The notes under the pieces: generated by a model
Told to the model about the DNA's origin: nothing
The model's database searches: none
What the model saw: the letters and a program-made list of their open reading frames with translations, nothing else
Part shown: positions 30,926 through 53,884 of the stretch, one piece after another
Layout of the letters: every line of letters begins with the position of its first letter
Position numbering within the stretch: position 1 is the stretch's first letter
NCBI GenBank assembly: GCA_964475165.1
Contig: CAYYVN010000008.1
Location: 4,160 to 68,159, forward strand
Direction of reading: 5' to 3'
Source: an uncultured Verrucomicrobiota bacterium
GTDB lineage: Bacteria; Verrucomicrobiota; Kiritimatiellia; JAAZAB01
DNA: 64,000 bases
Position numbers and translations under genes: made by a program

Positions 30926-31618
30926 TTAGCGGAAGTATTGTTCCATGGCGGCCAGTCCGGCGGGCGTGCCCATATCCAAAAGCGGCGGCGGAGTGGGGCA
31001 GACGCTTAGTTGCCGCTGCGCAGCCAGGCCCGGGAAAATATCCTTCTCCAATGAAAGGGCCTCATCCACCGGCAACAGATCCAAGATCGCTTTGGACATC
31101 AGATAGATACCGCCATTGATCCAGGCCGCCTCCCGCTCAGCTTTTTCATGGAAGGCGACCAAGCGTCGCTGGGCATCGAACTCAATCGTACCATAGCGGT
31201 CTGCCGGCCGGATTTGGGTGACGGCGATGGCTGCCAAGATGCCGTTCTGCCCGGCGGCGGTTCGCAGAGCGGTCAGTTCCAGGGCCGGCAAGAGGGTATC
31301 GCCGTTGAGGACCAGGAAGGGATCGGAGCGGATATGATTCTGGGCGAACTTCAGGCCGCCAGCCGTGCCCAGGGGGCTGGGCTCGATGGAATAGGAGAGC
31401 TGGCCGTCGGGCTTGGCCTGGCCTAGCCAGGCCACGATATCCTGAGCTAGATAACCGGCCGCCAGATGGATGGCTTCGATCCCCAAACGGTTCAGCCAGC
31501 GCAGCTGGCGCGCGAGGAAGGGTTCACCGGCGACTGGTACCAGCGCCTTGGGGCGATCAGGAAAGAGTTCCTTGATGCGCGTGCCCCGGCCACCCAGCAG
31601 AATGATCGCTTGAATCAT
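30926..31618 (-). CDS. hddC: Sugar-phosphate nucleotidyltransferase, HddC-like (heptose-1-P guanylyltransferase)
   Basis: ILLGG.GTR......RPKAL.PV.G.PFL, EP.PLGT.G.L, LNGDT, INGGIY and SLE.D.FP. Co-located with hddA. Confidence 0.75.
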   Translation of the reverse strand: MIQAIILLGGRGTRIKELFPDRPKALVPVAGEPFLARQLRWLNRLGIEAIHLAAGYLAQDIVAWLGQAKPDGQLSYSIEPSPLGTAGGLKFAQNHIRSDPFLVLNGDTLLPALELTALRTAAGQNGILAAIAVTQIRPADRYGTIEFDAQRRLVAFHEKAEREAAWINGGIYLMSKAILDLLPVDEALSLEKDIFPGLAAQRQLSVCPTPPPLLDMGTPAGLAAMEQYFR

Positions 31619-31628
31619 GGCGTATCAG

Positions 31629-31656
31629 ATAATATACTTTGAACAGGGTTTGTCAA
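31629..31656 (-). promoter_or_regulatory. Canonical sigma70 promoter for hddC
   Basis: Minus strand TTGACA (31656-31651)-16 nt-TATTAT (31634-31629), 10 nt above the hddC ATG. Confidence 0.6.
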
Positions 31657-31710
31657 AACAAGCCTGCGCTTTAATCAGCCCGTAAGTGTGTCGGTGGCTA
31701 AGATAAACGG

Positions 31711-32964
31711 ATGAAGACGACCCCTCAAAAACAGCCCGCGAGCACGCCGCCCACATGGCTCAAGACCTTTCTGGCTGTGGTCATTGCCTTGGCGGTAATT
31801 TTGGCCCTGGCGGCCTTGGTGATGATGTTCAATTGGGCGCCGATCACCCGAGCTCTCGCTCAGGAGGGCTGGGGGGCTTTTGCTGCTGTTATCCAGCGTA
31901 ATAAGATCAGCGCTTTATGGCATGCTTCCTTGATGAGCGCCGCCCTGGCGCTGGGCGTCTGGCTCTTGTGCTGCACGCCCGGACTGCGCCGCGCAGTGGC
32001 ACAGTCCTTAGCCTGGCTATTGGTCTTGCTGGTGGCCGCCGATGCTTTCTATTTAGCGCGCCATTATATCAAGACCATGCCGCTCAGTGCCGTGGCCGAA
32101 AATGATGTTATCCGCATCTTAAAATCTGCTCAGCCCGACGGTCGGGTAGCATTGGTGAGTCAATCCGGATTTTATAATCTCTGGTTGACCTATCTCTTGC
32201 CCTATCATCATATCCAGGCGATGAATGTGACCCAGATGCCCCGTATGCCCCAGGATTATAAGCAATTCCTCGAGGCGCTGGGTGGCCAGCCCTTGCGGCT
32301 GTGGCAACTTTCCGCCGTGACACATGTTTTGGGGCCAGCCCAGTTTTGGAATCATCTTCAGCAGGATGAACAGCTGCGCGCTGCTTTCAGACTGCTGTAC
32401 GCTTATAATGTTATACAAGATGATGCGCGCGTGACGGTTATCCCGGCCAGTGCCGAGCAACCGGGTCAACATGTGGTGCTGGAGCTGAAACTGCCCGCCC
32501 CGCGCTTCGCCTTGCTGGCCGGCTGGGAGGCTTTGCCGGATGATGAGGCTTTGCATCGCCTGGCCGATGAAGCTTTTCCCCTGTGGACCCAAGTCCTGGT
32601 GGCGCCGGAATGCGCCCAGGATCTAGCGCCCTTGGCGGGGCAGGGCTTGCGAGGCAGGATACAGCGCAAAAGCGGCTCGGCCCGCGAGGTGATTCTGGAT
32701 ATTATCACGGAAGAAGCGGCTATTTTGAGGATTGCCAATAAATATGATCCGGACTGGAAAGCCTGGGTGGATGGGCAGTCTCAACCTGTCTTGAGGGTCG
32801 ATTATATCTTTCAGGGGGTATATATTGCCCCCGGCCGCCATGAAATCATTTTGCGTTACGCGCCCCGCATTTGGACGGCTTGGGTTCAGGTGGCAGGGAT
32901 ATTGGCGTGCGGGGGAGCGGCATGGATCTTATTGGCTCGCCGCCGGAAAAATCCGGATAAATAG
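31711..32964 (+). CDS. YfhO-family GT-C protein, C-terminal half only
   Basis: Three TMs (LL..LVAAD.......Y), then a soluble region ending PR..L...W, EAAILR....YDPDWKAWVDG....V.RVDY.FQGV.I..G.HE....Y.P and a final TM, which is the YfhO C-terminus. Confidence 0.75.
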   Translation: MKTTPQKQPASTPPTWLKTFLAVVIALAVILALAALVMMFNWAPITRALAQEGWGAFAAVIQRNKISALWHASLMSAALALGVWLLCCTPGLRRAVAQSLAWLLVLLVAADAFYLARHYIKTMPLSAVAENDVIRILKSAQPDGRVALVSQSGFYNLWLTYLLPYHHIQAMNVTQMPRMPQDYKQFLEALGGQPLRLWQLSAVTHVLGPAQFWNHLQQDEQLRAAFRLLYAYNVIQDDARVTVIPASAEQPGQHVVLELKLPAPRFALLAGWEALPDDEALHRLADEAFPLWTQVLVAPECAQDLAPLAGQGLRGRIQRKSGSAREVILDIITEEAAILRIANKYDPDWKAWVDGQSQPVLRVDYIFQGVYIAPGRHEIILRYAPRIWTAWVQVAGILACGGAAWILLARRRKNPDK

Positions 32965-33950
32965 CCCATCCCGTAACCTAGATGAGCAACTAAGAATCCC
33001 GTTATGGTCATGAGAGCTTCGAGGGCGCCAGAGGAAACTTTCAGGCTCTCGAAGATAATCGCCAAGAAATATAAGAATAGCGGCAGATAGCTTAAACTTA
33101 TTATTCGGGCCGGCCAAGGGCATAGCCAGATAAAATTGACGATCAAAAGGTAGATCATTAGCAGCGCCGGCATGGCCTGCCAGAGATATGTGCTCCCTTT
33201 TCCCTTTCGAGCGATCCAGCCTTTGTAAAGGCCGTAATTATAAAATTGTTTGAAAAAAGGGAGATACACGGCGCGGCGGTGATGAAAGACCACCACCTCC
33301 GGGTCGTAAAGGATTGTTAAGCCTTGGGCGCGCATATCTTCGCAAAAGACCATATCCTCAGCGGTATCAAGTCTTTCATCAAAGAACAGGTTGGGGGGCC
33401 GGCGTATCACCATGTTGCAAGTTGGCATCTCATTCACCAAGCGGCGCGATACGGGGCGATGGCGAATATGGGCTGGTCCAAACCCTAGCGGACTGGCCAT
33501 CACATGTCCTGAGATCCGGCGCCGTAAAGCATCCCTGGGTGGCGTCAGGTTGGGGCCGGCCACTATTCCAACTTTATCCCGTAGTAAGGGCACGGCTTGT
33601 TTGAGCCAGTCGTTCCGGGGATAAGCATCGGCATCAATGAAAGCCAGGATTGATTCCTGTGCTTTGTGCAACGCGACATTCCGTTTGCAGGCCGGATTGC
33701 TGGGCCCCGTTGGCTCAATGATAACAGGGTGAACCTGCCCGACAGTTTCCAGTCGTTTTTTCCAATGTTCATCGGGCATCTCATTCGGCAAAAGCCACAA
33801 GGTGAAATGAGGATAGTCCAGCTTATGGCAATGCTGCACGCAATCCAGAAGCCAATCATCCCATTTATGGCAGGGGACCACGATAGCTACGGCGGGCCAC
33901 TCGTTGAGACGAGAGGGTAGTTCTGTTTGAGTTTTCATGCCATCCACCAT
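32886..33950 (-). CDS. GT2 family glycosyltransferase with C-terminal TMs
   Basis: AIVVPC, KRN.A, AFIDADAYP..DWL, NM..R...FDE....AED, Y.P.VVVFHHRR and F.KQ...YG. Confidence 0.85.
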   Translation of the reverse strand: MVDGMKTQTELPSRLNEWPAVAIVVPCHKWDDWLLDCVQHCHKLDYPHFTLWLLPNEMPDEHWKKRLETVGQVHPVIIEPTGPSNPACKRNVALHKAQESILAFIDADAYPRNDWLKQAVPLLRDKVGIVAGPNLTPPRDALRRRISGHVMASPLGFGPAHIRHRPVSRRLVNEMPTCNMVIRRPPNLFFDERLDTAEDMVFCEDMRAQGLTILYDPEVVVFHHRRAVYLPFFKQFYNYGLYKGWIARKGKGSTYLWQAMPALLMIYLLIVNFIWLCPWPARIISLSYLPLFLYFLAIIFESLKVSSGALEALMTITGFLVAHLGYGMGYLSGFFRRRANKIHAAPPHANIPAT

Positions 33951-34019
33951 TTACCCGCGTTAAAAGCGCACCTCAGTTCAAAATAGATTGGTTCTCATAA
34001 ACCGGCGGTAAGCTGGCCC

Positions 34020-35384
34020 TCAAAGCGCATGTGATCTTTGGCGGTGAGTTTTTTCATGGACGTCCCTGGCGCCCGCAGAAGATGGAGTATGGTTGCAGCG
34101 CATCAATTCATCCAGTCCATAGGCCGCCAGGATACCCAGGGTCAGTTGGAAGACTTGCAGGAATTTATTGGGATTGCGGATGGTGGAGATAAGCGGCAAT
34201 TTATAGAAGAGTGCATAAAGCGGAAAATATTTACCAAAAGCTAACAGGAGGGTGAGGCCGGCCGCGCAGCTCCAAAAGATTATTTCCGCTTTGCGTTCCG
34301 AATGCTCAGCGCCTGCACCTGCCTGATCATGCGGCAGGCCCTTGATAGCTGCCAGCAGGGCAAAGAGGGCCAGCAGGATGGGAATGGCACCCAGGTATTG
34401 GTTCTCCAGCTTGAAATTCATGAATCCCTGGCGAGTCTCTTCCCATCCGGCTGAGCGCCCCATGCGTCCCCAATAGGGGCCGGCAGCCTCACCGCTGCGC
34501 CAGCCCATATAGCCCGGGGCGATGAAGTCAATGCTTTCCGTCGGCGGCCAGCTCCATTGGGTGGCATAGGCCCACTTTTCCTCGGCCGACTCAGCCTGCA
34601 TCACAGCCACTTCCTGCACATTGATGCGGTAATTGCTGAGAATGTTGGAAAAGGAAAACAGCAGACCCATAGCGCCCAGCGTCAGCAGCACCAGGCAAGG
34701 CTTCCACCAGCTATGGCTGGCTCGCGCCAGCCGGATAGCCAGAAAGAGGGCGTAGGCGCCCAGAACCAATCCGAAGAAAAGGGCCACATCCAATTGCTCC
34801 AGGAACATCAGCCCTATGGCCGCACCGGCTAAAATACTCCAGGCGTAATGCGCCTGGCTCTCCAGCGCCTGCGCCAGGCAGTAGAGCCCCACACCGGCCC
34901 AGAGCAGCACGCCGAATTTGCCGATATGCCCGGCATAGGTTAAAGTTAAATTACTACCCAACCATAAGGCGCTCAATAATCCCATGAAAATGGCTGGGTA
35001 AGACATGCGGCGCCGTATCAGAAAGAGCATCATAAAAACAGAAGCGCCCAGCAGGGATAGGGCATGGATCCAGTTGAAATAAAGAGTGGTGGGCGCCAGC
35101 CAGAGTAAAACATTATTTAGAGTAAGAGGCAGGGAGCCGGCGGGCATGCCTAATAAGACAGAATCTTGCCACCACCATAAAAAGGATTCGGGCATTGTGC
35201 TCTTAGCCAAGTTGCATAAGCCGATGTTATCATCGGTAGTGAAAAGACACACATGCTTGAAAAATATCTGCCGAAACAAGCCAGCCGCCAAAAACAATAT
35301 GGCTAGCATAGCCCAAGCGAGCTTGCGGAGACTGGTGGAGGAGATAAGTTTATTTCCTTGTGAGGGCATATCCCTGCTCAGCAT
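34020..35384 (-). CDS. YfhO-family GT-C protein, N-terminal half only
   Basis: F.TDDNIG, W......GMP, AGHIGK, ATQWSWPP.E...F..PG..G, YWGRMG, YLG.IP..LA, L.LAFGKY.PLY..FY..P.....RNP.KF; ends just after this loop. Confidence 0.75.
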   Translation of the reverse strand: MLSRDMPSQGNKLISSTSLRKLAWAMLAILFLAAGLFRQIFFKHVCLFTTDDNIGLCNLAKSTMPESFLWWWQDSVLLGMPAGSLPLTLNNVLLWLAPTTLYFNWIHALSLLGASVFMMLFLIRRRMSYPAIFMGLLSALWLGSNLTLTYAGHIGKFGVLLWAGVGLYCLAQALESQAHYAWSILAGAAIGLMFLEQLDVALFFGLVLGAYALFLAIRLARASHSWWKPCLVLLTLGAMGLLFSFSNILSNYRINVQEVAVMQAESAEEKWAYATQWSWPPTESIDFIAPGYMGWRSGEAAGPYWGRMGRSAGWEETRQGFMNFKLENQYLGAIPILLALFALLAAIKGLPHDQAGAGAEHSERKAEIIFWSCAAGLTLLLAFGKYFPLYALFYKLPLISTIRNPNKFLQVFQLTLGILAAYGLDELMRCNHTPSSAGARDVHEKTHRQRSHAL

Positions 35385-36630
35385 TTTCTGGGTCGCGCAG
35401 AATACAGTCTAGCACAGCATTGGCAGTGTGCCTAGACATCCATTGGCGTCTGATCGGTTGCAGGCGATCCTGCAGCCGTGTATAATCCTGTAAAACATGC
35501 CGCAAAATCAGCTGTGCATGCGCAGGGTCTTTCAAGTTCACGCCTAGATCTCCCAGACCTTCCCGTTGCAGTTCGTTATCCAGCCATGTATCACGAGCCA
35601 CAATGGGCAGGACTCCATAAAGCACACTCTCGATTAAGATGTTGGAGGATTGCGCCCTAAAAATCGGTGGGCGATACAATAAAACAGCTATATTGGCGCG
35701 CCGTAATAGCTCGTGATATGCATTTTCCGGCAGAACAGCATCTTGGATTTGGATTTGTGGAAAACGATCGGCCAAGCGTTTCAGCCTGTGGAAGTAAGCG
35801 AGACTGCGCTCATATTCTGCCGGCGGTTGTTGGGAGGGGATAAGGTAAGCCTGCGCAATAACCCGTACTCGCTCAAAGAGGCTGGCATCATTGGAGAGCT
35901 CTTCAATCAGCTCCACAAAACAATCGAACCCTTTATTGATGCGCGCGCCACCCAAGAAAACGATGACCAAGGGATCTAGAGGCTTGGCTTCCATGGTAAA
36001 GCTCTGCGCTCCCACCGAGGGTATTATGGGGATCGGGCAGACTGCGACCGGCCAGCGCAATAACCCGGTGTAATCGGCGCTGAGCTTCTGGGTATCGCTG
36101 ATATAGCGTAGGCGTCTGCCCAGAGCTTTGCTCATTAGACCATGGCAGAAGCGCTGGCCCCACCCGAACATTTGGGTCATGAAAGCCGAAGGGTAGGAAC
36201 CGCGTCGCCAATCAAAGCGCAGCATGATGACGACACGTATCTTCTTGGCGGCCAGCTCATGACGCGTTTGCCAGATGAAACAGGCTAGAGGCAAAAGATC
36301 CGGCAACAATATGGTGGGGATAAAAATAAGGTCTCCCTGAGCGGGCTGCAGGCCATCTACGGCATACCATTGTGAGCGCAATTGCCTGTAAAGCCGGATC
36401 ATGGCCCGGAAGATCTTCAATATTTTGAGGAGATTGACCCTGGACTCCACCGTTTGCGCTGTCACCGGCGTGAAAGCCGGCACAATCTCGTTACTGCATG
36501 CGCTCGTGGCTCCATAGAGGTGGACCACGATTCCGCGGGCGCGGGCTGCTTCCATCACGCGCTTGTCGTAGCCATAAGCATGGCCGCTTTCATCGCCAGT
36601 CAGGCCGGGATCTATAATCAAGATCTTCAT
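35350..36630 (-). CDS. GT-B (GT4-like) glycosyltransferase
   Basis: MKILIIDPGL....GH, FLGGAR.NKGFD, Y.ELL..A...VL.Y and S.IL.E....G. Confidence 0.7.
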   Translation of the reverse strand: MKILIIDPGLTGDESGHAYGYDKRVMEAARARGIVVHLYGATSACSNEIVPAFTPVTAQTVESRVNLLKILKIFRAMIRLYRQLRSQWYAVDGLQPAQGDLIFIPTILLPDLLPLACFIWQTRHELAAKKIRVVIMLRFDWRRGSYPSAFMTQMFGWGQRFCHGLMSKALGRRLRYISDTQKLSADYTGLLRWPVAVCPIPIIPSVGAQSFTMEAKPLDPLVIVFLGGARINKGFDCFVELIEELSNDASLFERVRVIAQAYLIPSQQPPAEYERSLAYFHRLKRLADRFPQIQIQDAVLPENAYHELLRRANIAVLLYRPPIFRAQSSNILIESVLYGVLPIVARDTWLDNELQREGLGDLGVNLKDPAHAQLILRHVLQDYTRLQDRLQPIRRQWMSRHTANAVLDCILRDPENAEQGYALTRK

Positions 36631-36738: not shown

Positions 36739-37659
36739 TCAGGACGCAGATCCTAGTATTGCCTTATCGAACCACGCCACCGTTTGTTGTAGGCCCTGAT
36801 CCAGTGGGGTAGGGTTCCAAACGGGCATCAGCGTGCCTAGTTTTTCGATATCCAAAACCTTTGATCTGGCGCCCACATAACGATCAGGATCATAGCGGAT
36901 TAAATCGTGATCATAACCAGTAATTTCACATATTTTTTTGGCGAAAGCGCGTATCGAATAGCCTTGGCCGTTGCCGATATTGATAATTTCATTGGCAACG
37001 TGTTGCGCCAGAAATAAGGCCGCCTTCACAAAATCATCAATATAAACCAACTCCCTTTGCTGATAGCCATCACCCCAGAGGACAACAGCAGCTCCGCGTT
37101 TCTTTCCGTTCAAGATCTTCTCTATTAAATCGAAGATAAAATGCATTTGCTTCCCCTGCGTGCGGTAGCCCGGGCCATATAAAGTGGAAGGAACCAGATA
37201 AAGATACTGCAAGCCATACTGCTGATGTAAGGCTTGCAGGCCGACATAAAGCATGCGTTTGGTCATCGCGTAGGTATATAGGTCTGGAATAGGCATGCCT
37301 TGCATATAATTGGATTCAATCAGCTTATCCTCTGGCGCATACGAGCAACTAGTGCCCATAGCTATTAGTTTGGCTTGAGGCTGACGAGCTTGCCACCAAT
37401 CCAAAACAGTGGTGTTGATATGCTGATTGATGATCCATTGTTCACCAGGGTGATAACGGCAGAAATCACCAGCCTGGGTCCAGGCCGCCAAATGATATAT
37501 AAAATCATAACGCCTGTCTTCAAAAGCCCGGAGCGCTCCCGGCTGCCGTAAATCAGCATTCCGGGAATTGACGCCCACCACCTGGGCGCCCTGGGCAGTC
37601 AGGGCGCGGCATAAATGAGTGCCTAAAAAACCGGTGGCTCCGGTTACTAGAATATTCAT
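36739..37659 (-). CDS. GDP-fucose-synthase-like NDP-4-keto-sugar C4-reductase (SDR)
   Basis: ILVTGATGFLG, HLAA...AG, GTSCSY, YAMTKR (YxxxK), PSTLYGPG and WGDG.QQRE..Y.DD. Confidence 0.8.
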   Translation of the reverse strand: MNILVTGATGFLGTHLCRALTAQGAQVVGVNSRNADLRQPGALRAFEDRRYDFIYHLAAWTQAGDFCRYHPGEQWIINQHINTTVLDWWQARQPQAKLIAMGTSCSYAPEDKLIESNYMQGMPIPDLYTYAMTKRMLYVGLQALHQQYGLQYLYLVPSTLYGPGYRTQGKQMHFIFDLIEKILNGKKRGAAVVLWGDGYQQRELVYIDDFVKAALFLAQHVANEIINIGNGQGYSIRAFAKKICEITGYDHDLIRYDPDRYVGARSKVLDIEKLGTLMPVWNPTPLDQGLQQTVAWFDKAILGSAS

Positions 37660-38870
37660 GGAGTTTGCTCCGACGGATTGATGGGAAAAAAGAACTCGAC
37701 CCCCTGATGTAGCAGATCGGCGTAGCGGTTCAGTATTTCATTTTTAAAGTTCCAGGCCAGTACGAAATATATATCTGGTTGGCGGAGGACTTCATTTTCC
37801 AGCAGGATGGGGATATGCATTCCAGGCGAATACAAATGCGCCCGCATAGGGTTTTTTTCCACCAGATAATCCAAATAACGTGTGTTGATCCCGCAGTAAT
37901 TTAAAAGGGTATTCCCCTTAACTGGTGCGCCCATACCATAAATTGTTTTGCCTGTCGCTTTGGCTTTCTCCAGATATGCCATCAGGCGTGTGCGCAGTTC
38001 AGTTGTGCGGTGCGCAAACGCAGCATAAGTGGCAAAATCATTGGTATGTTCGCGAGCCTCTAACGCGCGCATAGCGGTTAGGCGCTCGGAAACCTGGGCC
38101 AGATTATGATGCCTGACAAAAAGAATGATTGATCCGCCATGCACAGGTGAGCAATAGGCATCCACAGATGCTAGACCATGACGTTGCAGCAGGTGCTCAA
38201 TGCTAGCTAGGGTATAATAGAGCAGGTGTTCATGGTAGACCTGATCGAAAGCGGTATTGGCCATGATCTGTTTCATATAAATAAATTGTACTACGAAAAT
38301 CCCCTCTGGTGCCAAGCATTCCCGAATACCTTCCGTTACCGAGTGCAATTCCTCCAAATGAAAAAACACTCCGGACGCATTGATAATACCGAATTTGCGC
38401 TCCAAGTTTTGGGCCGTTTCAAGATTGAAGAAATCGGCGACGGTCGGAATACCGGAGGCCACAGCTCGCTGCGCAATTTTGTGGCAAGACTCCACGCCGA
38501 GCACATCATATCCCAGGCGTTGATATTCTTGTAGTTGTGTGCCATCATTGGAGCCGATATCCAAGACGCTCCGCTGCGCTAAGCTATGCCCGAAATGGTG
38601 ATCAACATATTGGGCAGTTTCAGCAAAATGGTTTCTGAGAGTTGCCGTGGTGCCGGAGAGATAAGTATGGTTCTTGAACATGATTTCTTTGGAGACCGTA
38701 TAATCCAACTGCGCCGCCTGGCACTTCGCACAATGCAGTAATCGCAAGGGATAGCGTGGTTCGCGGCCCAGCTCATCCTTTTTCAAAAAATGATTGCCCC
38801 AGGGTTGATCTCCTAAATCGAGAGCCAAGCGTAAGTCTTTCCCGTCGCATATCCTACATTGCATTGTCAT
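37656..38870 (-). CDS. NDP-sugar C-methyltransferase (Zn-binding N-domain, SAM domain, C-methyltransferase C-domain)
   Basis: CRIC....L..LDLG.QP.GN.F, C.KC...QL, DIGSNDG..L, YHEH..YY, HGGS and YG.GAP.KGNTLLNY, as in the TcaB9/NovU/EryBIII type. Confidence 0.85.
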   Translation of the reverse strand: MTMQCRICDGKDLRLALDLGDQPWGNHFLKKDELGREPRYPLRLLHCAKCQAAQLDYTVSKEIMFKNHTYLSGTTATLRNHFAETAQYVDHHFGHSLAQRSVLDIGSNDGTQLQEYQRLGYDVLGVESCHKIAQRAVASGIPTVADFFNLETAQNLERKFGIINASGVFFHLEELHSVTEGIRECLAPEGIFVVQFIYMKQIMANTAFDQVYHEHLLYYTLASIEHLLQRHGLASVDAYCSPVHGGSIILFVRHHNLAQVSERLTAMRALEAREHTNDFATYAAFAHRTTELRTRLMAYLEKAKATGKTIYGMGAPVKGNTLLNYCGINTRYLDYLVEKNPMRAHLYSPGMHIPILLENEVLRQPDIYFVLAWNFKNEILNRYADLLHQGVEFFFPINPSEQTP

Positions 38871-39370
38871 GGTGTATCCTCACTCGTAAAAACCATCCGC
38901 TCTGAAAAACGGCGGTTATTGTCTTGGATCCGGATGCCATATGCTCGCCGGGATTCCATCAACCCGGCACTTGTTTGTTGTGGGTCCTCGGCGAGCCATT
39001 GATGATGGCCATAGCGCGAGAGCATCATGGGCCTAATGGGAGAACTTTCGGAATTATGCTCGGGGTGCATCTTGTTGGAGTACACATCAAGAGCGGAAAG
39101 CTGCATATAGTGCTCGAATCGAAAATCATGCAAAGCGCGCGCCACACCGCGCACCGATGCTTCGAATTCTAACTGCGGATTTTGATCTGCCAGATATTTC
39201 TGGGAATTGCCAGTGGTATTGATCAGCACGCGACACTTGGCGCCTGCCCGCAGGGAATATTCATCTGCATCCACCACCTCGGGTTCGATACCCTGGTGGC
39301 GGTATTTCGTCGCGCTGGCGGATTCCAGAAAACCCCTTCCGCCCAATACGATTATCTCTGCAGATGCCAT
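38867..39370 (-). pseudogene. Decayed NAD-dependent epimerase/reductase
   Basis: Rossmann motif GGRGFLE (third Gly lost) and YGHHQ in place of YxxxK. Similarity ends about 130 aa in, and the C-terminal half is missing. Confidence 0.6.
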
Positions 39371-39536
39371 ATCCGTAAAACTCTAGCTCCAACATTACAA
39401 CGGTAAAATCAATGTAATCTGGCGGACTAGCTCTATCAAGAAACTTTTGATGATAGATCCGGCTTCGGCTAACAACATCAGTGCCAGCTCCTCATCTCGA
39501 CCGCACACTGGCCAGTCGATTGCACCGTTAGGGCCA

Positions 39537-40799
39537 TCAGGTTGGCTGGTCGTCTGATTTCACCAGCTCATAATCTAACTTGGCATCCACGCATAATTTA
39601 AGCAGAGGCTCCACCATTTGCTGGGTTATCTTTTGCTTATCAAAGAGTTCTCCGGCTGCAGCCAAGGCCAGGGAGCCAAATTTTTTACGGAGCACAGGAT
39701 TTAAAGCCAATCTGATGAGCTTAGCCTTGAATTCAGCCATATTGGTCGGATCAAACAGGTAACCATTTTCTCCATCGCGAATGACCTCTCTAATCGAGTT
39801 TAACCTGGCCGCGAGCACTGGTAAAGCGCAAGCCATATTATGGACCAGCGTGCCAGTCATAGAGAAGTGATCCGTATCAAGTCCCACGCGCATCACCAGG
39901 CCAATATCGCCCGCATTAAGGGCCTCATTGACTTCAGCGGGGGTATCCAGCCATCCAGCAAAGGTGACGATTTTTTGTAAATTATGGGCGGCAACCATTT
40001 TCTGTAGACGCGGCAATTCGGGGCCGTCACCAATCAGCAGAAAACGCAGCGCCGGGCATTGAGGCAGCACATCAGGCAATGACGCAATAATGAGATCATT
40101 GCCCTTGTTGGGATGCAGGATGCCATGATGCACGAGAATGATTTCATCTGGTGCAAAGCTCCAGCGTTGCCGACAGGGGTCCTTTGGTTGGGGGTAGTAT
40201 ATATTTGTATCGCAGGGATCGTATACCGGTACAACACGTGCGGCAGGCACCCCTGATTGTGCTAGATAAGCGCGCGTGGTTTTAGCGCGGGTAAAAATCA
40301 AGGGCAGTTTGCGCCAAACTAGCATATCCAGGCGGTTGATCGCCTGGCCCAGGCTTCTGAGACAAGGGTTTTTACGACCATAGATGTTGAGGAAAAAATC
40401 AGCAATCGTTACCACGACCTTCCGTCCAAAAAATATGCGTGCCAGACCAGCGCTCAAAGGCAGCGTTTCCTCAATGAAAACCACATCAATATTATGGATC
40501 CGGCAATGGAGTCCCATAAAGGGTATGAGCAAAATCCATAAGCAGGTTTTTAGGAATTTATCGAAGGTGCTTTGGCGGTTAATGGCCAGGGGCAAGATAT
40601 GGAGCCGGGCATTCCGGGCTATGCGCTGCGGACATGGCTTGGAGCTTTTCAAGCCATAATAATGAACCACGCAATCGTGCGCGAGAGCTTCTATGATATC
40701 TGGGATGCAATGCAAGAGCTCGGTATGTTCCGCCGGGCCATAGCGAAACCAAAAGGCAATCTGCGGCTTGCGACGGGGATTGTTTGTTGGGGCCTGCAT
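39537..40799 (-). CDS. GT4 family glycosyltransferase
   Basis: HG.L...KG.D, ..GDGPE...L, GW.....V......DIG, MA..LPV.A.....REVI.DGENGYLF. Confidence 0.85.
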   Translation of the reverse strand: MQAPTNNPRRKPQIAFWFRYGPAEHTELLHCIPDIIEALAHDCVVHYYGLKSSKPCPQRIARNARLHILPLAINRQSTFDKFLKTCLWILLIPFMGLHCRIHNIDVVFIEETLPLSAGLARIFFGRKVVVTIADFFLNIYGRKNPCLRSLGQAINRLDMLVWRKLPLIFTRAKTTRAYLAQSGVPAARVVPVYDPCDTNIYYPQPKDPCRQRWSFAPDEIILVHHGILHPNKGNDLIIASLPDVLPQCPALRFLLIGDGPELPRLQKMVAAHNLQKIVTFAGWLDTPAEVNEALNAGDIGLVMRVGLDTDHFSMTGTLVHNMACALPVLAARLNSIREVIRDGENGYLFDPTNMAEFKAKLIRLALNPVLRKKFGSLALAAAGELFDKQKITQQMVEPLLKLCVDAKLDYELVKSDDQPT

Positions 40800-40989
40800 G
40801 GTTTAAAATAATATCAGGCGTGATTGCGGGGCGCATCTGCGCAGGGCTCTGCAATCATCCTCATATACGGACCAATCCTTTTTTACGAGCTTCCCTACAT
40901 CAACGGACGGTGCAGGCAATCCCCACTTCAAGCGAGGTAGGAAAACTCATTCCCGACTTGCTAAGCTGCCAAAATTATGCCGGCTAAAA

Positions 40990-41151
40990 TTATCCGCATG
41001 CTTCCATGCATAAGACAACCTCGGCTCCAAACAGCGCCTCGGATAAGCCTTCGGGAGCGTTCAGATCCATAACAATATCGGCCGGTCCACTATCTGGTAT
41101 GCCGCGCCATCCGCGGCAAATAGACAAGGCAAAACCGAGTCGCTCTATCAT
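40990..41151 (-). pseudogene. Possible remnant of a class I SAM methyltransferase
   Basis: 53-codon ORF with ADIVMDLN...AEVVLCMEA, resembling the D.V.DLN...FD.VLC.E pattern, in an otherwise ORF-less 500-bp gap. Confidence 0.25.
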
Positions 41152-41304
41152 GGTGCATCCATGGGGGATTGATCGTTTGTAACCCTACAATGCTTATCTT
41201 GAATTACTACCAGCGTCAAGAGGCTTATATTTTAATTCCAGCGCGCCGCGCCTTGCTCCCAGAGAGATCCTTGTGGCCTGTAGCAATACTCAAGCATGGG
41301 GTGC

Positions 41305-42579
41305 TTATGCATTTGCCGAAAGAATCTGCTGTGGTTGATTGCGGTGCAGAGCCAGAAATAAAAAGATCAACAAAAATGTTCCAACCAACATCAGCACCGC
41401 CACGATCTGCAACAAGGCGGCATGCCAGAGGATAACGCCCGCCAGGTAAGCGCCAACGCAAAGGGCTAGAGGCGCCAGGATCCGAAAACGGTTTTGGGAG
41501 AGCTCGAAGGTCATCAGGATATAGGCCAGGCTCAGGGGGCTCATGGCCCAAATCACACCGCGCACCAGGCGGCGCATCTCGGCTTCTGGTGCCCAATCAT
41601 GATAGAGCAGGCCCAGTGGCAATTGCGGAAAGAGGCTGCAGATCAGGGCCGCTGCGCCGACCAGCAGGCCGGCATAGAGTAGCGCCCGCCTGAGCATTTC
41701 CAGATGCTGATGGCTGCTGGCGCCATGACTGACTGTTTTAGGAAATAAAGCGCCGGCAATGGGCATAGGCAGGAAGATGATCATGCGCCCGATGGTGCTG
41801 GCGCGCGCGTAAAGGCCCGATTCCAGGGGTGCGAAATAGTGTTTAACGATCAACACATCGGCATTCATCAGAAAAGCGAAGCCTGCCAATACCAGGAGCG
41901 TCTGCAGCAAATACGTGCGCGCGCCACTCGGTAAACCCTGCGCCGGCGCCAAACGCCCGCGCAATACCAGGATGAGCCCCCAGAGGCCCAAGCCAAGATT
42001 CACCAGCACGGCCAGGCCTTGCCCGGCCAATGCCCAGTGGGCTGTGGCCGCAATTGCATAGACGAACCAGCCGCCGGCCAAGAGGCGCACCAGACCCCAG
42101 CTGGCGCCGGCGATGGAGGCCCAGCCAAAAGCCTGTACCCCTTGCAAGGCGCCGCCCATAATGGGTGGTAGAAAGGAGAGCGCCAAGACCAATAAAGCCC
42201 AGAAGAATACACCGCTATTGGGTAATTGGAAGAAGAGCGTTAGACTATCGCGCGCCAGCCAAGCGGCCCAGAATATGCCGATGGCGATCAAGGCCATTTT
42301 CCAAGCCCAGTTCCAGACCAGCGGCAGAATATCGCCGGCGCGCTGCTCTTGCAGCAGATGCGCGGAGAAAAAGGCCAGAGCATTGCTGAGAGCGTTCAAG
42401 GGCATGCCAGCGATCAGGATCAGGCCCAGCATGGAAACCAGGATGCCATACTCCGTCGGCGCCAACCAGCGGCCCATCACCACATGAAAAAGAGCATTAC
42501 AAATATTGCCCACCTGGGAAGCTGCCATTAACAGCAGGCTATGCCGCAGGAGGGGATCCTTAAGATTCACAGGGCTCAT
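41305..42579 (-). CDS. Wzx-like oligosaccharide flippase (MOP family)
   Basis: About 12 TMs, N.LFH....R.L.P..YG.L, D...VKHYF.....G.YA.AS.IGR.I.F.P. Start set at ATG 42579. Confidence 0.85.
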   Translation of the reverse strand: MSPVNLKDPLLRHSLLLMAASQVGNICNALFHVVMGRWLAPTEYGILVSMLGLILIAGMPLNALSNALAFFSAHLLQEQRAGDILPLVWNWAWKMALIAIGIFWAAWLARDSLTLFFQLPNSGVFFWALLVLALSFLPPIMGGALQGVQAFGWASIAGASWGLVRLLAGGWFVYAIAATAHWALAGQGLAVLVNLGLGLWGLILVLRGRLAPAQGLPSGARTYLLQTLLVLAGFAFLMNADVLIVKHYFAPLESGLYARASTIGRMIIFLPMPIAGALFPKTVSHGASSHQHLEMLRRALLYAGLLVGAAALICSLFPQLPLGLLYHDWAPEAEMRRLVRGVIWAMSPLSLAYILMTFELSQNRFRILAPLALCVGAYLAGVILWHAALLQIVAVLMLVGTFLLIFLFLALHRNQPQQILSANA

Positions 42580-43552
42580 AAAAAATGATTTGGGTCCCCG
42601 AATGCTCGAACCGGAAGGGGACATGGAGTAGGGGCGCCATCTGTTGTTGGAATTGCGCCTGCCGCTCCGGCGGCACAAAGAAAAGCATGAACCCACCGCC
42701 ACCGGCGCCCAGCAGCTTACCGCCGAGTGCGCCGGCTTGCAGCGCCTGAGCATAAATGGCATCCACATGCGATGTTGATATTTTAGTGCTGAGCGAACGC
42801 TTGATCTGCCAGGATTCGTGCAGCAGCCTTCCAAAGGCGGCGATATCATCGGTGCCCTGCAGAATGGCCAGGGCCTGATCCACCATTTGGCGCATGGCCC
42901 GCAGTTCCTTGGTTTTGGCGGATATATTGCGGATTTGGTCGGCAGCCACCTCGGAAGCGGTGCGCGAGAAGCCGGTGAAATAGAGCATCAGATGGGATTG
43001 CAGTTGCCGCAAACGCGCCGGGGATAGCGTCACCGGCTGAAGGGTGATGCGGTCGCCGGCAGCGAACTCGATCAGGTTCAAACCCCCGCAGGCGGCGGTC
43101 ACTTGGTCCTGAGAGCCCACATTTTCGCCGATCAGATCACGTTCGACATGGATGGCCTCTTGGGCCAACTGCTGGCGGCTGCGCATCGTGCCGCGCAGGG
43201 CATAGAGAGCGTGCAGAATCCCCACCATGAAGGCGGAGCTGGAGCCCAAGCCGGCGCGGGCCGGCAGATCGCTATCATTATGGATTTCCACACCCTGTTC
43301 GATGCGCAGGTATTTCAGGCCCTCGCGCACAGCTGGGTGCTTGATTTCCTCGATGGTATTTACCCCCTCGAGGCGCGAGTAAACGATGCGGTATTTATGA
43401 TCGAAGAAAGGTGGCAGATAGCGGCAGGTGATGTAGCAATAGCGGTTGATGCTGGTGGCCAGCACCGCCCCGCCATGGTCATTGTACCAGGCCGGATAAT
43501 CTGTACCCCCACCAAAAAACGAGATGCGATAAGGCGTGCGACTGATAATCAT
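42560..43552 (-). CDS. hddA: D-glycero-alpha-D-manno-heptose-7-phosphate kinase (GHMP family)
   Basis: IISRTP.RISFFGGGTDYP, DLPA.AGLGSSS, VG.QDQ..AA.GG and GGKLLGAGGGGF. Start set at ATG 43552. Confidence 0.88.
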   Translation of the reverse strand: MIISRTPYRISFFGGGTDYPAWYNDHGGAVLATSINRYCYITCRYLPPFFDHKYRIVYSRLEGVNTIEEIKHPAVREGLKYLRIEQGVEIHNDSDLPARAGLGSSSAFMVGILHALYALRGTMRSRQQLAQEAIHVERDLIGENVGSQDQVTAACGGLNLIEFAAGDRITLQPVTLSPARLRQLQSHLMLYFTGFSRTASEVAADQIRNISAKTKELRAMRQMVDQALAILQGTDDIAAFGRLLHESWQIKRSLSTKISTSHVDAIYAQALQAGALGGKLLGAGGGGFMLFFVPPERQAQFQQQMAPLLHVPFRFEHSGTQIIFYEPCES

Positions 43553-43584
43553 CTTTATTTTCCTGAGCGCGCCTGAGTTTCCCC

Positions 43585-44517
43585 TCAAATATTGGCATAT
43601 TGATTGCGGCGGATGATTTGATAACCCTTGATCAATTCGGCGATCCCCTGCCTCAGGGAGTGGCGCGGCTTGAAGCCGGTGCCCTCGAGCTTGGCGTTGC
43701 TGACCAGATAATCGCGCTGATCCGGGTCGCGGCCGACCGGAGACTCCAGGATCTGAAAATCGGGTAGTTGCTTCTTGATCTCCAAACAGAGCTCCAGCTT
43801 GGAGAGATTGGCGTTGCTGAGACCGACATTATAGGCTTCGCCGCGCATCTGGGCCTGCTGATCCAAGGCATGCATAAAAGCGCGGGCCACATCGCGCACA
43901 TGGATGTAATTGCGCTTGAAATGCGATTCGAAGAGCACCACGCAACGATCGGTTATGGCGCGATAGGTAAAATCATTAACCAATAAATCCAGGCGCATGC
44001 GCGGGCTGATGCCGAAGGCCGTGGCCAGACGCAGCGAAATAGCATTGCTGGATTCCAGCAGATATTTCTCCAACTCCACCTTCAATTTGCCATAGAGGGA
44101 GACGGGCCGCAGCGGCGAGCGTTCAGTGCAATAACCATCTCGCGTACCGATGCCATAGCCGCTATTGGTGATGGGGATGATGATGAGCTGCTGGCGACTG
44201 GCCAGGCGGCTGAGCATCTTTACAGCATCCAGATTGATGGCGCGCGCTTCCGTCGGCTTCCGCGCGCAAAGCGGCGCACCCACCAAGCAGGCCAGGGGCA
44301 AGATGGCATCGGCCTGGGGCAGGGCGGATTTGATGAGGGCCTTATCCCGCGCGTCACCGCGGATAACCGTCAGGGATTTTTTATGGCAGCAATCCAGGAG
44401 GGAGGCTTGACCATATAAGAAATTATCGATCACCGTCACTTGATGACCGGCGTTCAAGAGCATCGGCACTAAAATCGAGCCAATATAACCGGCACCGCCG
44501 GTGACCAGGATCTTCAT
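43585..44517 (-). CDS. GDP-D-glycero-D-manno-heptose C4-dehydrogenase-like SDR (Campylobacter Cj1427c type)
   Basis: GGAGYIGS, PLA.LVGAPLC, P.TNSGYGIG, CTE.SPLRP.S.YG..K, RLAT.FG.SPRMRLDLLVNDFTYRA and DPD.RDY.VSN.KLE match my recollection of Cj1427c along its length. Confidence 0.8.
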   Translation of the reverse strand: MKILVTGGAGYIGSILVPMLLNAGHQVTVIDNFLYGQASLLDCCHKKSLTVIRGDARDKALIKSALPQADAILPLACLVGAPLCARKPTEARAINLDAVKMLSRLASRQQLIIIPITNSGYGIGTRDGYCTERSPLRPVSLYGKLKVELEKYLLESSNAISLRLATAFGISPRMRLDLLVNDFTYRAITDRCVVLFESHFKRNYIHVRDVARAFMHALDQQAQMRGEAYNVGLSNANLSKLELCLEIKKQLPDFQILESPVGRDPDQRDYLVSNAKLEGTGFKPRHSLRQGIAELIKGYQIIRRNQYANI

Positions 44518-51364: not shown

Positions 51365-53884
51365 ATGGACAAGCATGCCGTATGGAAGTGGCTGATACTC
51401 ATCGCCCTGACCGCCTGGTCGCTGGCCTTGGTAATCCCGCCGGCCAAAAAAATCAAGCTGGGCCTTGATCTGAAGGGCGGGACCAGTTTCACCGTGCAGA
51501 TCAATCAGGCCGAAATCGAGAAGCAATTGCGCGAGGAATATCCGGATTGGACCGCTGAGCAGCTTCAGAGCCGCGTGCCATCATCCATCAAGCGTGCCCA
51601 GGAACAGGCCCTGGAAATCATTCGCAATCGCGTGGATGCCCTGGGCGTGGCTGAGCCGCTGATTTACCCGGAAAAAGATAATCATGTTATCGTCCAGATT
51701 CCCGGTCTCAAAGAGGCCGATCGCGAGCGTGCCATCCAGTTGATTCAGAGTGCGGCTTTCCTGGAATTTGCCATGGTGCACGAGGAAAACGATAAGCTCG
51801 TGCAGGCGCTCTTCGATAAAGGCCTGGCGCCGGAAGGCTATCGGATTGTGAGCGCGGGCGGGCGCCAGTTTCATGGCGACTATTACCAGCGCGATCTGCA
51901 ATCCATGCCCGATGGCGCGTTGGGTGCCGAGTTCCGCGCTCGCTTGGAGCGTTTCCAGGCCCCGCCCGGTTATCGCTTTATGCTGGAGGAAAAAATCATT
52001 GAGGGCCAAAAACAGCATATCCCCTATTTCGTCCGCCAACGCTACGAGATGAAAGGCGATGCCCTCAAAAACGCCGGCGTGGAATACGATCAGATGGGGC
52101 GGCCCTATGTGACGCTCTCCTTTGATAAAAAAGGCGCTCGTAAATTCGCGCGCATCACCTCCGATTACGCCCCCGGCGGGGCGCGCAATCCCAGTCCGGA
52201 AGGCCGCCGCTATATGGCCATCATCATGGATGGCCGCCTTTATTCGGCGCCTTTCCTGAAAACCGCCATCTACGGTGGCGATGCCATCATTGAGGGTAAT
52301 TTTTCCATAGCCGAGGCCCAGGGCCTCGCCATCGTGCTCCGTTCCGGATCGCTGCCGGCACCGGTGGAAATCATCGCTTCGTGGACGGTGGATCCTTCCC
52401 TGGGCCGTGATTCCATCGAAAGCGGCACGCGCGCCACCATCTATAGCGGCATCATTGTGGTTGTTTTTATGACCGCTTACTATTTACTGGGTGGCGTCAT
52501 CGCCAATATCGGCCTGCTCTTCAATATGCTGCTGCTGCCGCTGGCGATGATGATCACCGCCGGTGTTCTGAGCATGTTTTCCGGTGGCGCCGGCGGTGGC
52601 GCCAGCGTCGGTTTGCCCGTCTTAACCCTGCCGGGGATTGCTGGGATCGCTCTGACCATCGGCATGGCCGTGGATGCCAATGTCCTCATCTTTGAGCGGA
52701 TTCGTGAGGAACAAAATACCGGTAAGCGCCTGGCGGCGGCCATTGAGGGCGGCTACCATAAGGCTTTCATCACCATCTTGGATGCCAATCTGACCACCGT
52801 GCTGACGGCGGTGATCCTCTTCATTTTCGGCACAGGCGCCGTGCGCGGCTTCGGCATTACCTTGACGGCTGGCATTATGGCCAGCATGTATTCAGCCCTG
52901 GTGATCACGCGGATGATCTTCAATGCCATCGTCGCCCGCAGCTCGCTGCCGCGCTTACGCATGTTGCATATTATCCGCTCCACCAACATTGATTTCATCG
53001 GTGTCTGGAAGATCGCTCTGCTGGTCTCGCTGATCGTGATTGTGGGGGCTTGGGCCGTGGTTGTTTCCAGAGGCCACCAGGATATCACCCGGGTGCTGGG
53101 TACAGATTTCACCGGTGGCGCGGCTATCACCTTCAGCTTCCAAGAGAAAGAGGCTGTGGAAAAAATTCGCGATACCCTGGCTGGCGTGGGCATCAAGCAG
53201 GCCCATATTCAATACCAGAAGGTCATGGATAAGCCCTTGGAATATTTGCAGGTGCGTGTGCCGGAAGCCAGCGGTATCGCCGCCAAGGAAGCTCTCTTAA
53301 CCGCTTTCGCCGGAGCGGGTTTCAGTGTGCTCAGCGAAGATTTGGTTGGCCCCCAGGTGGGCGCGGATATGGCGCGGCGGGCGCTCTGGGCCATGGCCCT
53401 GGCTTTGGGTGGTATTATTATTTATATATCCTGCCGCTTCAAGTTTGCCTATGCCGTCGGCGCCGTGGCGGCGCTCCTGCATGATGTCTTGGTGGGGCTG
53501 GGGATCTATTGCCTTTGCGGCCGCCAGGTAGATATGATCATCGTGGCCGCCCTGATGACCATCATCGGCTTTTCGGTGAATGATACCATCGTCATTTTCG
53601 ATCGTATTCGCGAGAAGCTCAAGTTGCAGCCCAATCTGCCTTTTCGGCAAGTCTGCAATCTGAGCATCAACGAAACCCTGGGCCGCACCATCCTGACTTC
53701 CACCACCATCTTTTTGGCGGTCTTGATGTTGCTGATCTTTGGCGGCGGTGCCATTAATGATTTTGCCTTTCTATTCTTCATCGGCATCATCGCCGGAACC
53801 TATTCCAGCGTTTATATCGCCACGCCGGTGATGATCGCCCTCACCCGCCGCAGCAAGGGGGCCGCCAGCACACCCAAGCGTTGA
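51365..53884 (+). CDS. secDF: Fused protein translocase SecDF
   Basis: LGLDLKGG, LTLPGIAG..LTIGMAVDANVLIFERIREE, G.DFTGG and GFSVNDTIVIFDRIRE. Confidence 0.96.
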   Translation: MDKHAVWKWLILIALTAWSLALVIPPAKKIKLGLDLKGGTSFTVQINQAEIEKQLREEYPDWTAEQLQSRVPSSIKRAQEQALEIIRNRVDALGVAEPLIYPEKDNHVIVQIPGLKEADRERAIQLIQSAAFLEFAMVHEENDKLVQALFDKGLAPEGYRIVSAGGRQFHGDYYQRDLQSMPDGALGAEFRARLERFQAPPGYRFMLEEKIIEGQKQHIPYFVRQRYEMKGDALKNAGVEYDQMGRPYVTLSFDKKGARKFARITSDYAPGGARNPSPEGRRYMAIIMDGRLYSAPFLKTAIYGGDAIIEGNFSIAEAQGLAIVLRSGSLPAPVEIIASWTVDPSLGRDSIESGTRATIYSGIIVVVFMTAYYLLGGVIANIGLLFNMLLLPLAMMITAGVLSMFSGGAGGGASVGLPVLTLPGIAGIALTIGMAVDANVLIFERIREEQNTGKRLAAAIEGGYHKAFITILDANLTTVLTAVILFIFGTGAVRGFGITLTAGIMASMYSALVITRMIFNAIVARSSLPRLRMLHIIRSTNIDFIGVWKIALLVSLIVIVGAWAVVVSRGHQDITRVLGTDFTGGAAITFSFQEKEAVEKIRDTLAGVGIKQAHIQYQKVMDKPLEYLQVRVPEASGIAAKEALLTAFAGAGFSVLSEDLVGPQVGADMARRALWAMALALGGIIIYISCRFKFAYAVGAVAALLHDVLVGLGIYCLCGRQVDMIIVAALMTIIGFSVNDTIVIFDRIREKLKLQPNLPFRQVCNLSINETLGRTILTSTTIFLAVLMLLIFGGGAINDFAFLFFIGIIAGTYSSVYIATPVMIALTRRSKGAASTPKR

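Follow-up and report, generated by a model that had tools for sequence, protein, structure and literature searches.

The 64,000-nucleotide stretch of contig CAYYVN010000008.1 analysed here (the window), from an uncultured Verrucomicrobiota bacterium of the Kiritimatiellia, encodes a membrane glycosyltransferase (GT) of the GT-C class in two pieces, an N-terminal and a C-terminal half carried by separate genes on opposite strands, with a family 2 glycosyltransferase (GT2) gene between them. The arrangement goes back to an old fission of one GT-C_A membrane glycosyltransferase, the halves of which probably still assemble into one enzyme. The family to which the halves belong is distantly YfhO-like and typical of Kiritimatiellia/Verrucomicrobiota. 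The three genes are as follows.

31711-32964, plus strand: C-half of the split GT-C, 417 amino acids (aa), intact open reading frame (ORF)
32886-33950, minus strand: GT2 gene, 354 aa, intact ORF
34020-35384, minus strand: N-half of the split GT-C, 454 aa, intact ORF

The ORF list bears out the initial annotation of this region in its description of three intact frames, with the GT2 gene lying between the halves and convergent with the C-half. The 3' ends of the C-half and GT2 genes overlap in antisense over 79 nt (32886-32964), and no second copy of either half is present in the 64-kb window. The true start of the N-half is likely to be its second ATG (M6, 35369), because most relatives begin there, as does the corresponding gene of a 97%-identical strain (L055; compared loci carry L numbers). 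This start cuts the overlap of the N-half with the gene upstream from 35 nt to 20 nt.

Evidence that the two genes are halves of one protein comes from comparison with fused relatives. Residues 30-404 of the fused protein P0059 (787 aa) correspond to N-half residues 47-436 (51% identity, E 3e-125), and its residues 427-785 to C-half residues 40-413 (43% identity, E 3e-91). The matches are collinear, without overlap and without a missing helix, confirming the complementary coverage that had been suspected. The accompanying estimate, that about 870 aa together make one full-length protein, held as regards complementarity but not as regards size, as the combined 871 aa exceed the fused forms (about 790-870 aa), mainly through two tails at the break and an insertion in an N-half loop. 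In an alignment of 150 fused and stand-alone sequences, N-halves stop a few residues past the helix '...FLQVFQ..AAYGLD', and C-halves open with a short polar leader, after which comes the transmembrane (TM) helix that is next in the fused proteins. By length, N-half matches comprise a few of ~790 aa and many of ~440 aa. The break falls in a short cytoplasmic turn between TM10 and TM11, which in the AlphaFold2 (AF2) model of P0059 is a 3-residue turn between helices 373-397 and 401-427. Both broken ends carry many basic residues, consistent with a cytoplasmic location.

On the AF2 helix map the N-half comprises TM1-TM10 and ends in a basic cytoplasmic tail. Its first periplasmic loop, directly after TM1, carries a conserved TTDDN motif (D51, D52). 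A further periplasmic loop, long and conserved, has the pattern TQWSWPPxE...GWR...GRMGRS...NFxLE...IRNPNKF. The C-half consists of a short basic leader, TM11-TM13, a periplasmic alpha/beta and beta-sandwich domain with the motifs FYNxWLTYxxPY, TQMPRM and DPxWxAxxDG, and a final TM14. Stand-alone N-halves also have an insertion of variable length in the TM8-TM9 loop that is absent from fused proteins; in the window it spans residues ~349-366 (about 34290-34340), and AF2 confidence dips there.

Assignment to a family was possible mainly through structure. The N-half had been credited with N-terminal YfhO-like motifs, which Pfam and NCBIfam searches did not confirm, giving no significant match to it. 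The C-half does resemble YfhO at residues 334-387, which match positions 774-827 of the 835 in the PF09586 profile (30.6 bits against a cut-off of 28.5), but not over the rest of the profile. Fused relatives score 26-31 bits with the same C-terminal stretch only, and show weak PMT_2 matches in the TM region (E 2e-3 to 7e-3). Judged on sequence, the label 'YfhO-type' is only marginally justified. A whole-family profile found no match among Protein Data Bank (PDB) sequences. With the family alignment as input, AF2 modelled P0059 with a predicted local distance difference test (pLDDT) score of 94.8 and a predicted TM-score (pTM) of 0.93, and the window halves joined end to end with a pLDDT of 92.7 and a pTM of 0.92; low confidence in the latter was confined to the first 9 residues and to ~430-468, the N-half tail plus C-half leader. 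Both models have about 14 TM helices and a periplasmic domain; the 7-TM conserved module is N-terminal and precedes the variable module. Foldseek searches of the PDB matched AftD (6w98, E 8e-8), ArnT (5f15, E 5e-6, TM-score 0.55 normalised to the target), STT3/PglB (8pn9, 5ogl) and Pmt4 (9i5k), all with probability 1.0 and E from 8e-8 to 9e-3, which places the family in the GT-C_A class. In GT-C_A enzymes the conserved N-terminal part is a 7-TM module whose first outer loop holds the catalytic base; a variable module comes after it, and the acceptor binds where the two meet (PMC13503287). The acidic TTDDN motif, in which D51 is conserved in 100% and D52 in 94% of 148 relatives, corresponds to this first-loop feature and is predicted to supply the catalytic base. 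Use of a polyprenyl-phosphate-linked donor is putative, with indirect support from the conserved adjacency of a membrane GT2.

The split state is widespread. A genome scan restricted to one genome per species yielded 54 loci, all in metagenome-assembled genomes (MAGs) of Kiritimatiellia/Verrucomicrobiota type. At 35 of these a single fused ORF of about 790-940 codons was found, and at seven there were separate N and C ORFs on the same strand, adjacent in L001 and 0.75-3.9 kb apart in the remainder; the rest of the 54, apart from three stand-alone N-halves considered below, were cut by contig ends. Further look-ups added the same-strand split loci L056/L057, L058 and L059. The closest relatives of the window locus have separate N and C ORFs, the opposite-strand order being seen only in the window's own lineage (including L055). 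In a large protein collection, stand-alone N-halves and stand-alone C-halves from Kiritimatiellia/Verrucomicrobiota each form more than 100 clusters at 90% identity; the C-half has 104 homologues, mostly of 405-470 aa, and more than 110 fused proteins were counted among the matches listed. An exhaustive HMMER census with 50% clustering gave 1149 relatives at E <= 1e-3; among the best 150 of these representatives about 15 are stand-alone N-halves and the others are mostly fused.

The direction of change is indicated by neighbour-joining trees, in which the fused form is the root state. The window N-half lies in a pure split clade of 29 and the window C-half in a pure split clade of 13, so that the nearest relatives of both are stand-alone halves and not different full-length paralogues, in line with the initial annotation. 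The C-halves form two subclades, as against one main N clade, and one MAG (locus-tag prefix Q7J98) has two N-halves. Genes between the halves at other split loci are mutually unrelated (DUF2961/GH172, B12-radical SAM, PDDEXK_3 of the PD-(D/E)XK type, HEPN). Several split loci contain a DUF2961/GH172 protein of ~770-800 aa, a B12-binding radical-SAM enzyme, or both, between the halves, and a PDDEXK_3 gene or remnant lies directly upstream of C-halves of both subclades. The rows below use the coordinates of each locus.

L006 11481-13841: inter-half DUF2961/GH172 and/or B12-radical-SAM gene(s)
L034 902-3295: the same
L037 11456-15304: the same
L059 11486-13789: the same
L004 11338-12723: the same
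L003 11263-11715: PDDEXK_3 gene or remnant directly upstream of the C-half
L058 6210-6383: the same
L059 13786-14067: the same
L017 10454-10957: HEPN gene directly upstream of the C-half

Insertion of a PDDEXK_3 gene was considered as a cause or relic of the fission; the association is suggestive only, and fused genes, too, have members of this family at a distance of a few kb (L027, L038, L040, L043).

Both halves are under constraint and have evolved together. In 42 genomes with both parts, N-domain and C-domain distances are correlated (r=0.90, Mantel p=0.001), and the correlation is also found in split loci alone (r=0.71, p=0.006). Against L055, the ratio of non-synonymous to synonymous substitution rates (dN/dS) comes to 0.185 in the N-half and 0.151 in the C-half, values that are based on small counts (11 and 14.5 non-synonymous changes, respectively) and similar to the 0.18 of a neighbouring epimerase. 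Across both halves, the window proteins retain 114 of 116 positions with a family conservation of >=93%. A subgroup of loci (L001, L003, L004, L006, L037) has C-halves that are closer to each other (distance 0.18-0.31) than the N-halves are (0.36-0.59), reversing the family trend of a faster C part (fused-fused distances 1.13 vs 0.70); exchange of C-halves among genomes, or altered constraint after fission, is a possible explanation.

The opposite-strand layout appears to be a later and local development, and it is associated with a segment that differs between close strains.

32884-34106 (1223 nt): variable cassette, made up of the GT2 gene and the 3' ends of both half-genes (~27 codons of the C-half, ~29 codons of the N-half)
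L055 4191-5376 and L060 2263-2943: alternative cassette

At every other split locus examined the two halves share a strand. In L056 the gene order is TRL(+), nucleotidyltransferase(-), N(+), C(+), and in the window it is TRL(+), nucleotidyltransferase(-), C(+), GT2(-), N(-); compared with L056, the N-half and its upstream operon are thus inverted and on the other side. In blastn comparisons with L055 and L060 the flanks are 96-98% identical to the window (96-97% on either side for L055), and the cassette has no DNA match, with sharp breakpoints at 34107 and 32883. L055 has in its place a different GT2 gene (26% aa identity) in the opposite orientation. The independent contig L060, one informative contig among 10 loci from a metagenome scan for the C-half, shares the 32883/32884 breakpoint and has the L055-type cassette. 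In the N-half the breakpoint directly follows '...AAYGLDE', and in the C-half '...APRIWTAW'; both 3' tails are therefore part of the cassette, and with the GT2 the strains have also exchanged the N-half's cytoplasmic tail and the C-half's last TM helix. No inverted repeats flank the cassette, and the difference is an allelic replacement, not a flip. The alternatives originally offered, a two-subunit enzyme or rearrangement by inversion, are both supported as successive events; a single simple inversion cannot give the window gene order. Inversion of an ancestral C-GT2 block would yield the order of L055 and L060 (N-> <-GT2 <-C) and not that of the window (N-> GT2-> <-C), since the window differs by replacement of the cassette.

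Both types of GT2 occur directly downstream of fused GT-C genes in other genomes, a position in which orthologues of the window GT2 (39-47% identity) are found and which is occupied by a GT2 in at least 17 of the 35 fused loci. The window GT2 (Pfam PF00535/PF13641/PF13632) is a membrane-anchored GT-A-fold enzyme with C-terminal TM helices. Weak matches connect it with GT21 and with a PglI-like glucosyltransferase (E 5e-3), and the GT2 of the alternative cassette with ceramide glucosyltransferase (E 2e-3). The non-conserved tail of the GT2 (last ~26 codons) runs antisense to the codons for the final TM helix of the C-half. Alignments with GT2 orthologues end at about residue 324-337 of 354, before this tail, which looks like a read-through product of the cassette junction.

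At first sight, intact halves on opposite strands around another gene resemble a disrupted gene, and the cassette breakpoints cut the 3' ends of both. Decay of a disrupted gene into a pseudogene pair, or an assembly artefact behind the layout, is nevertheless very improbable, given intact ORFs with dN/dS of 0.15-0.19, retention of nearly all family-conserved positions (114/116), a split state that recurs in more than 100 clusters, and independent assemblies (L055 and L060) that reproduce the convergent layout and the breakpoint. A programmed DNA inversion, acting as a phase-variation switch that joins and separates the halves or flips the GT2, would account for GT2 genes in opposite orientations in the window and in L055/L060. 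It is the least probable of the explanations, as these GT2s are different genes with no DNA similarity, the cassette is without flanking inverted repeats or an adjacent recombinase gene, each half has its own start, stop and tail, and unrelated genes separate the halves at other split loci.

Sub-functionalisation after fission would leave the N-half as an autonomous minimal GT-C and the C-half as a separate membrane-anchored periplasmic carbohydrate-binding or scaffolding protein. The N-half does contain the whole 7-TM conserved module (as defined in PMC13503287) with its DD motif; the halves appear to be in separate transcription units here and elsewhere can lie more than 10 kb apart or on different contigs; and the reversed distances in the L001 subgroup (C-halves 0.18-0.31, N-halves 0.36-0.59) hint at partly uncoupled evolution. 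A review also speculates that in small GT-C enzymes the acceptor may have to be bound by a separate partner (PMC8035078). Nevertheless, TM11-13 of the C-half sit in the same helical bundle in the models (pTM 0.92-0.93), N and C distances still co-vary among split loci, conserved residues are kept in both halves, and solved GT-C_A enzymes form their acceptor site where the conserved module meets the variable one (PMC13503287). Independent functions for the two proteins are therefore considered unlikely.

The favoured explanation remains one enzyme in two pieces. An old gene fission gave rise to separate N and C genes, and a later lineage-specific rearrangement placed them on opposite strands. 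The fission, its conservation, the co-evolution of the halves and the fold are shown by the analysis, whereas membrane assembly, donor, acceptor and the part played by the GT2 are inferred. The N-half carries the conserved 7-TM catalytic module, with the first-loop aspartates, and three more TM helices; the remaining three helices of the core are in the C-half, along with the periplasmic domain and the terminal TM. Each half would insert on its own, with the broken ends cytoplasmic, and the two would associate laterally in the membrane to form one enzyme. The adjacent membrane GT2 probably makes the lipid-linked donor: by analogy with CsbB/YfhO, it would attach a sugar to a lipid carrier on the cytoplasmic side, the carrier would be flipped across the membrane, and the two-subunit GT-C would pass the sugar to a periplasmic acceptor. 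After fission the genes became free to move, and here they are convergent and apparently transcribed separately, on either side of a GT2 cassette that strains exchange.

Several observations weigh against this explanation. At three loci (L007, L012, L019) the N-half stands alone, the surrounding 5.8-10 kb containing no C-half, and in some MAGs the halves are on different contigs; co-regulation of orphan or distant halves is not guaranteed. Parsimony on the neighbour-joining trees, which are without support values, gives 3-4 state changes and not one clean fission, an excess that may be tree noise. The tethered AF2 model is compatible with one fold but, owing to its artificial linker and an alignment that includes fused homologues, is not independent evidence of assembly; we infer that the halves most likely associate physically and assemble into one GT-C. 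The window GT2 has no GtrB or CsbB match, its best being MftF-like and below the NCBIfam cut-off. Lastly, no GtrA-type flippase was found by Pfam among the larger ORFs at 28-47 kb, small ORFs not having been scanned exhaustively, although in known transmembrane glycosylation systems the flippase is often encoded elsewhere (PMC8035078).

An extension of the two-piece enzyme, that it is modular, with a catalytic N-subunit, an exchangeable C-subunit for acceptor specificity and an exchangeable GT2 donor cassette, is possible but rather unlikely. Strains could then alter their surface glycan by recombining within the conserved half-genes. Consistent with this are the swap of a cassette with both 3' tails between 97%-identical strains, the two N-halves in the Q7J98 MAG, the two C subclades against one N clade, and the uncoupled N and C rates in one subgroup.

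The surroundings of the split gene fit a surface-glycan cluster, as judged from gene content. Features of interest are given below.

30926-31618, minus strand: sugar-phosphate nucleotidyltransferase (Pfam PF00483)
31619-31710 (92 nt): divergent intergenic region between the nucleotidyltransferase (minus strand) and the C-half (plus strand)
35350-36630, minus strand: family-less protein of 426 aa, upstream of and overlapping the N-half, in the same operon by position
41305-42849, minus strand: protein of 514 aa with no Pfam family and about 8-9 hydrophobic segments
51365-53884, plus strand: fused SecDF, 839 aa

The divergent region contains promoter-like hexamers (11/12 on the minus strand, 9/12 on the plus strand); a promoter scan of the region as a whole gave no enrichment over shuffles. 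The region is the likely, though weakly assigned, site of a promoter for the C-half alone, and the two halves would then be transcribed as parts of different units. The nucleotidyltransferase also neighbours the GT-C/GT2 module, at 47-53% identity, in L003, L009-L011, L013, L014, L024 and L056. The 426-aa protein has no Pfam or NCBIfam match, is 95% conserved in L055 with a dN/dS of 0.32, and its gene follows epimerase and sugar C-methyltransferase genes. These belong to a cluster at 36739-44517 that encodes two NAD-dependent epimerase/dehydratases, the sugar C-methyltransferase (PF08421/PF08484), a GT4 and a GHMP-type kinase, the last pairing with the nucleotidyltransferase. The content of the cluster points to production of an activated sugar that is C-methylated or unusual in some other way, and the 514-aa protein is a candidate flippase, polymerase or ligase.

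Among known systems, the closest functional analogue is CsbB/YfhO of Bacillus subtilis, Staphylococcus aureus and Listeria, one of the GT-A plus GT-C pairs that work via a C55-phosphate (C55-P)-sugar intermediate (PMC8035078). Shared features are a polytopic GT-C with a C-terminal periplasmic beta-rich domain, its genetic pairing with a membrane-anchored GT2, whose adjacency is conserved, and the match of the C-terminal ~55-70 residues of the split family to Pfam YfhO. Unlike single-chain YfhO, the window enzyme is split and leaves the N-terminal ~750 positions of the PF09586 profile unmatched; its GT2 is not CsbB/GtrB-like by sequence; and its host is a diderm bacterium of the Planctomycetes-Verrucomicrobia-Chlamydiae (PVC) group without teichoic acids, so that the acceptor must differ from that of YfhO systems. 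The closest structural relatives are AftD and ArnT. The fold class, the acidic motif in the first periplasmic loop and the order of a 7-TM module followed by a variable module are shared with AftD, ArnT, STT3, PglB and Pmt4, whereas sequence identity is 8-15%, with no sequence-level PDB match. Solved GT-C_A folds are single polypeptides, and the partners in oligosaccharyltransferase (OST) and Pmt1/Pmt2 are additional proteins or full-length paralogues, not half-folds.

Division of a glycosyltransferase fold between two genes has its closest precedent in Alg13/Alg14 and bacterial EpsE/EpsF, a GT-B enzyme whose fold is divided over two genes, neither product being dispensable; split and fused forms are both found across lineages, and one old split with later rearrangements has been inferred (PMC8993221). 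That GT-B enzyme is soluble or peripheral and is split between two Rossmann-like domains, whereas the GT-C of the window is cut inside a TM helix bundle. For that kind of cut there are parallels outside the glycosyltransferases. The pieces of a membrane protein cut within a loop can each insert unaided and then come together, and split polytopic proteins such as SecD/SecF, of a family known in both split and fused (SecDF) states, and co-expressed LacY fragments do reassemble. These are transporters or translocon accessories and not glycosyltransferases. To our knowledge, GT-C enzymes (OST/PglB, ArnT, Emb/Aft, PMT, YfhO) have been described as single polypeptides as far as the fold itself is concerned, and a non-exhaustive literature search found no report of a naturally split GT-C.

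What is unusual here is the gene architecture and not the enzymology, which is ordinary, suggesting a two-piece version of a single-chain enzyme class. Stand-alone N-halves are annotated as 'hypothetical protein' and lack a Pfam domain, making the family invisible in the current annotation of surface-glycan loci of the Kiritimatiellia. If the explanation is correct, a split that cuts the helix bundle and is conserved across a clade would show that the variable module of a GT-C enzyme can be supplied in trans. It would also provide a natural system in which to trace donor and acceptor specificity to particular parts of a GT-C, and would suggest how split or modular GT-C enzymes might be designed for glycoengineering.

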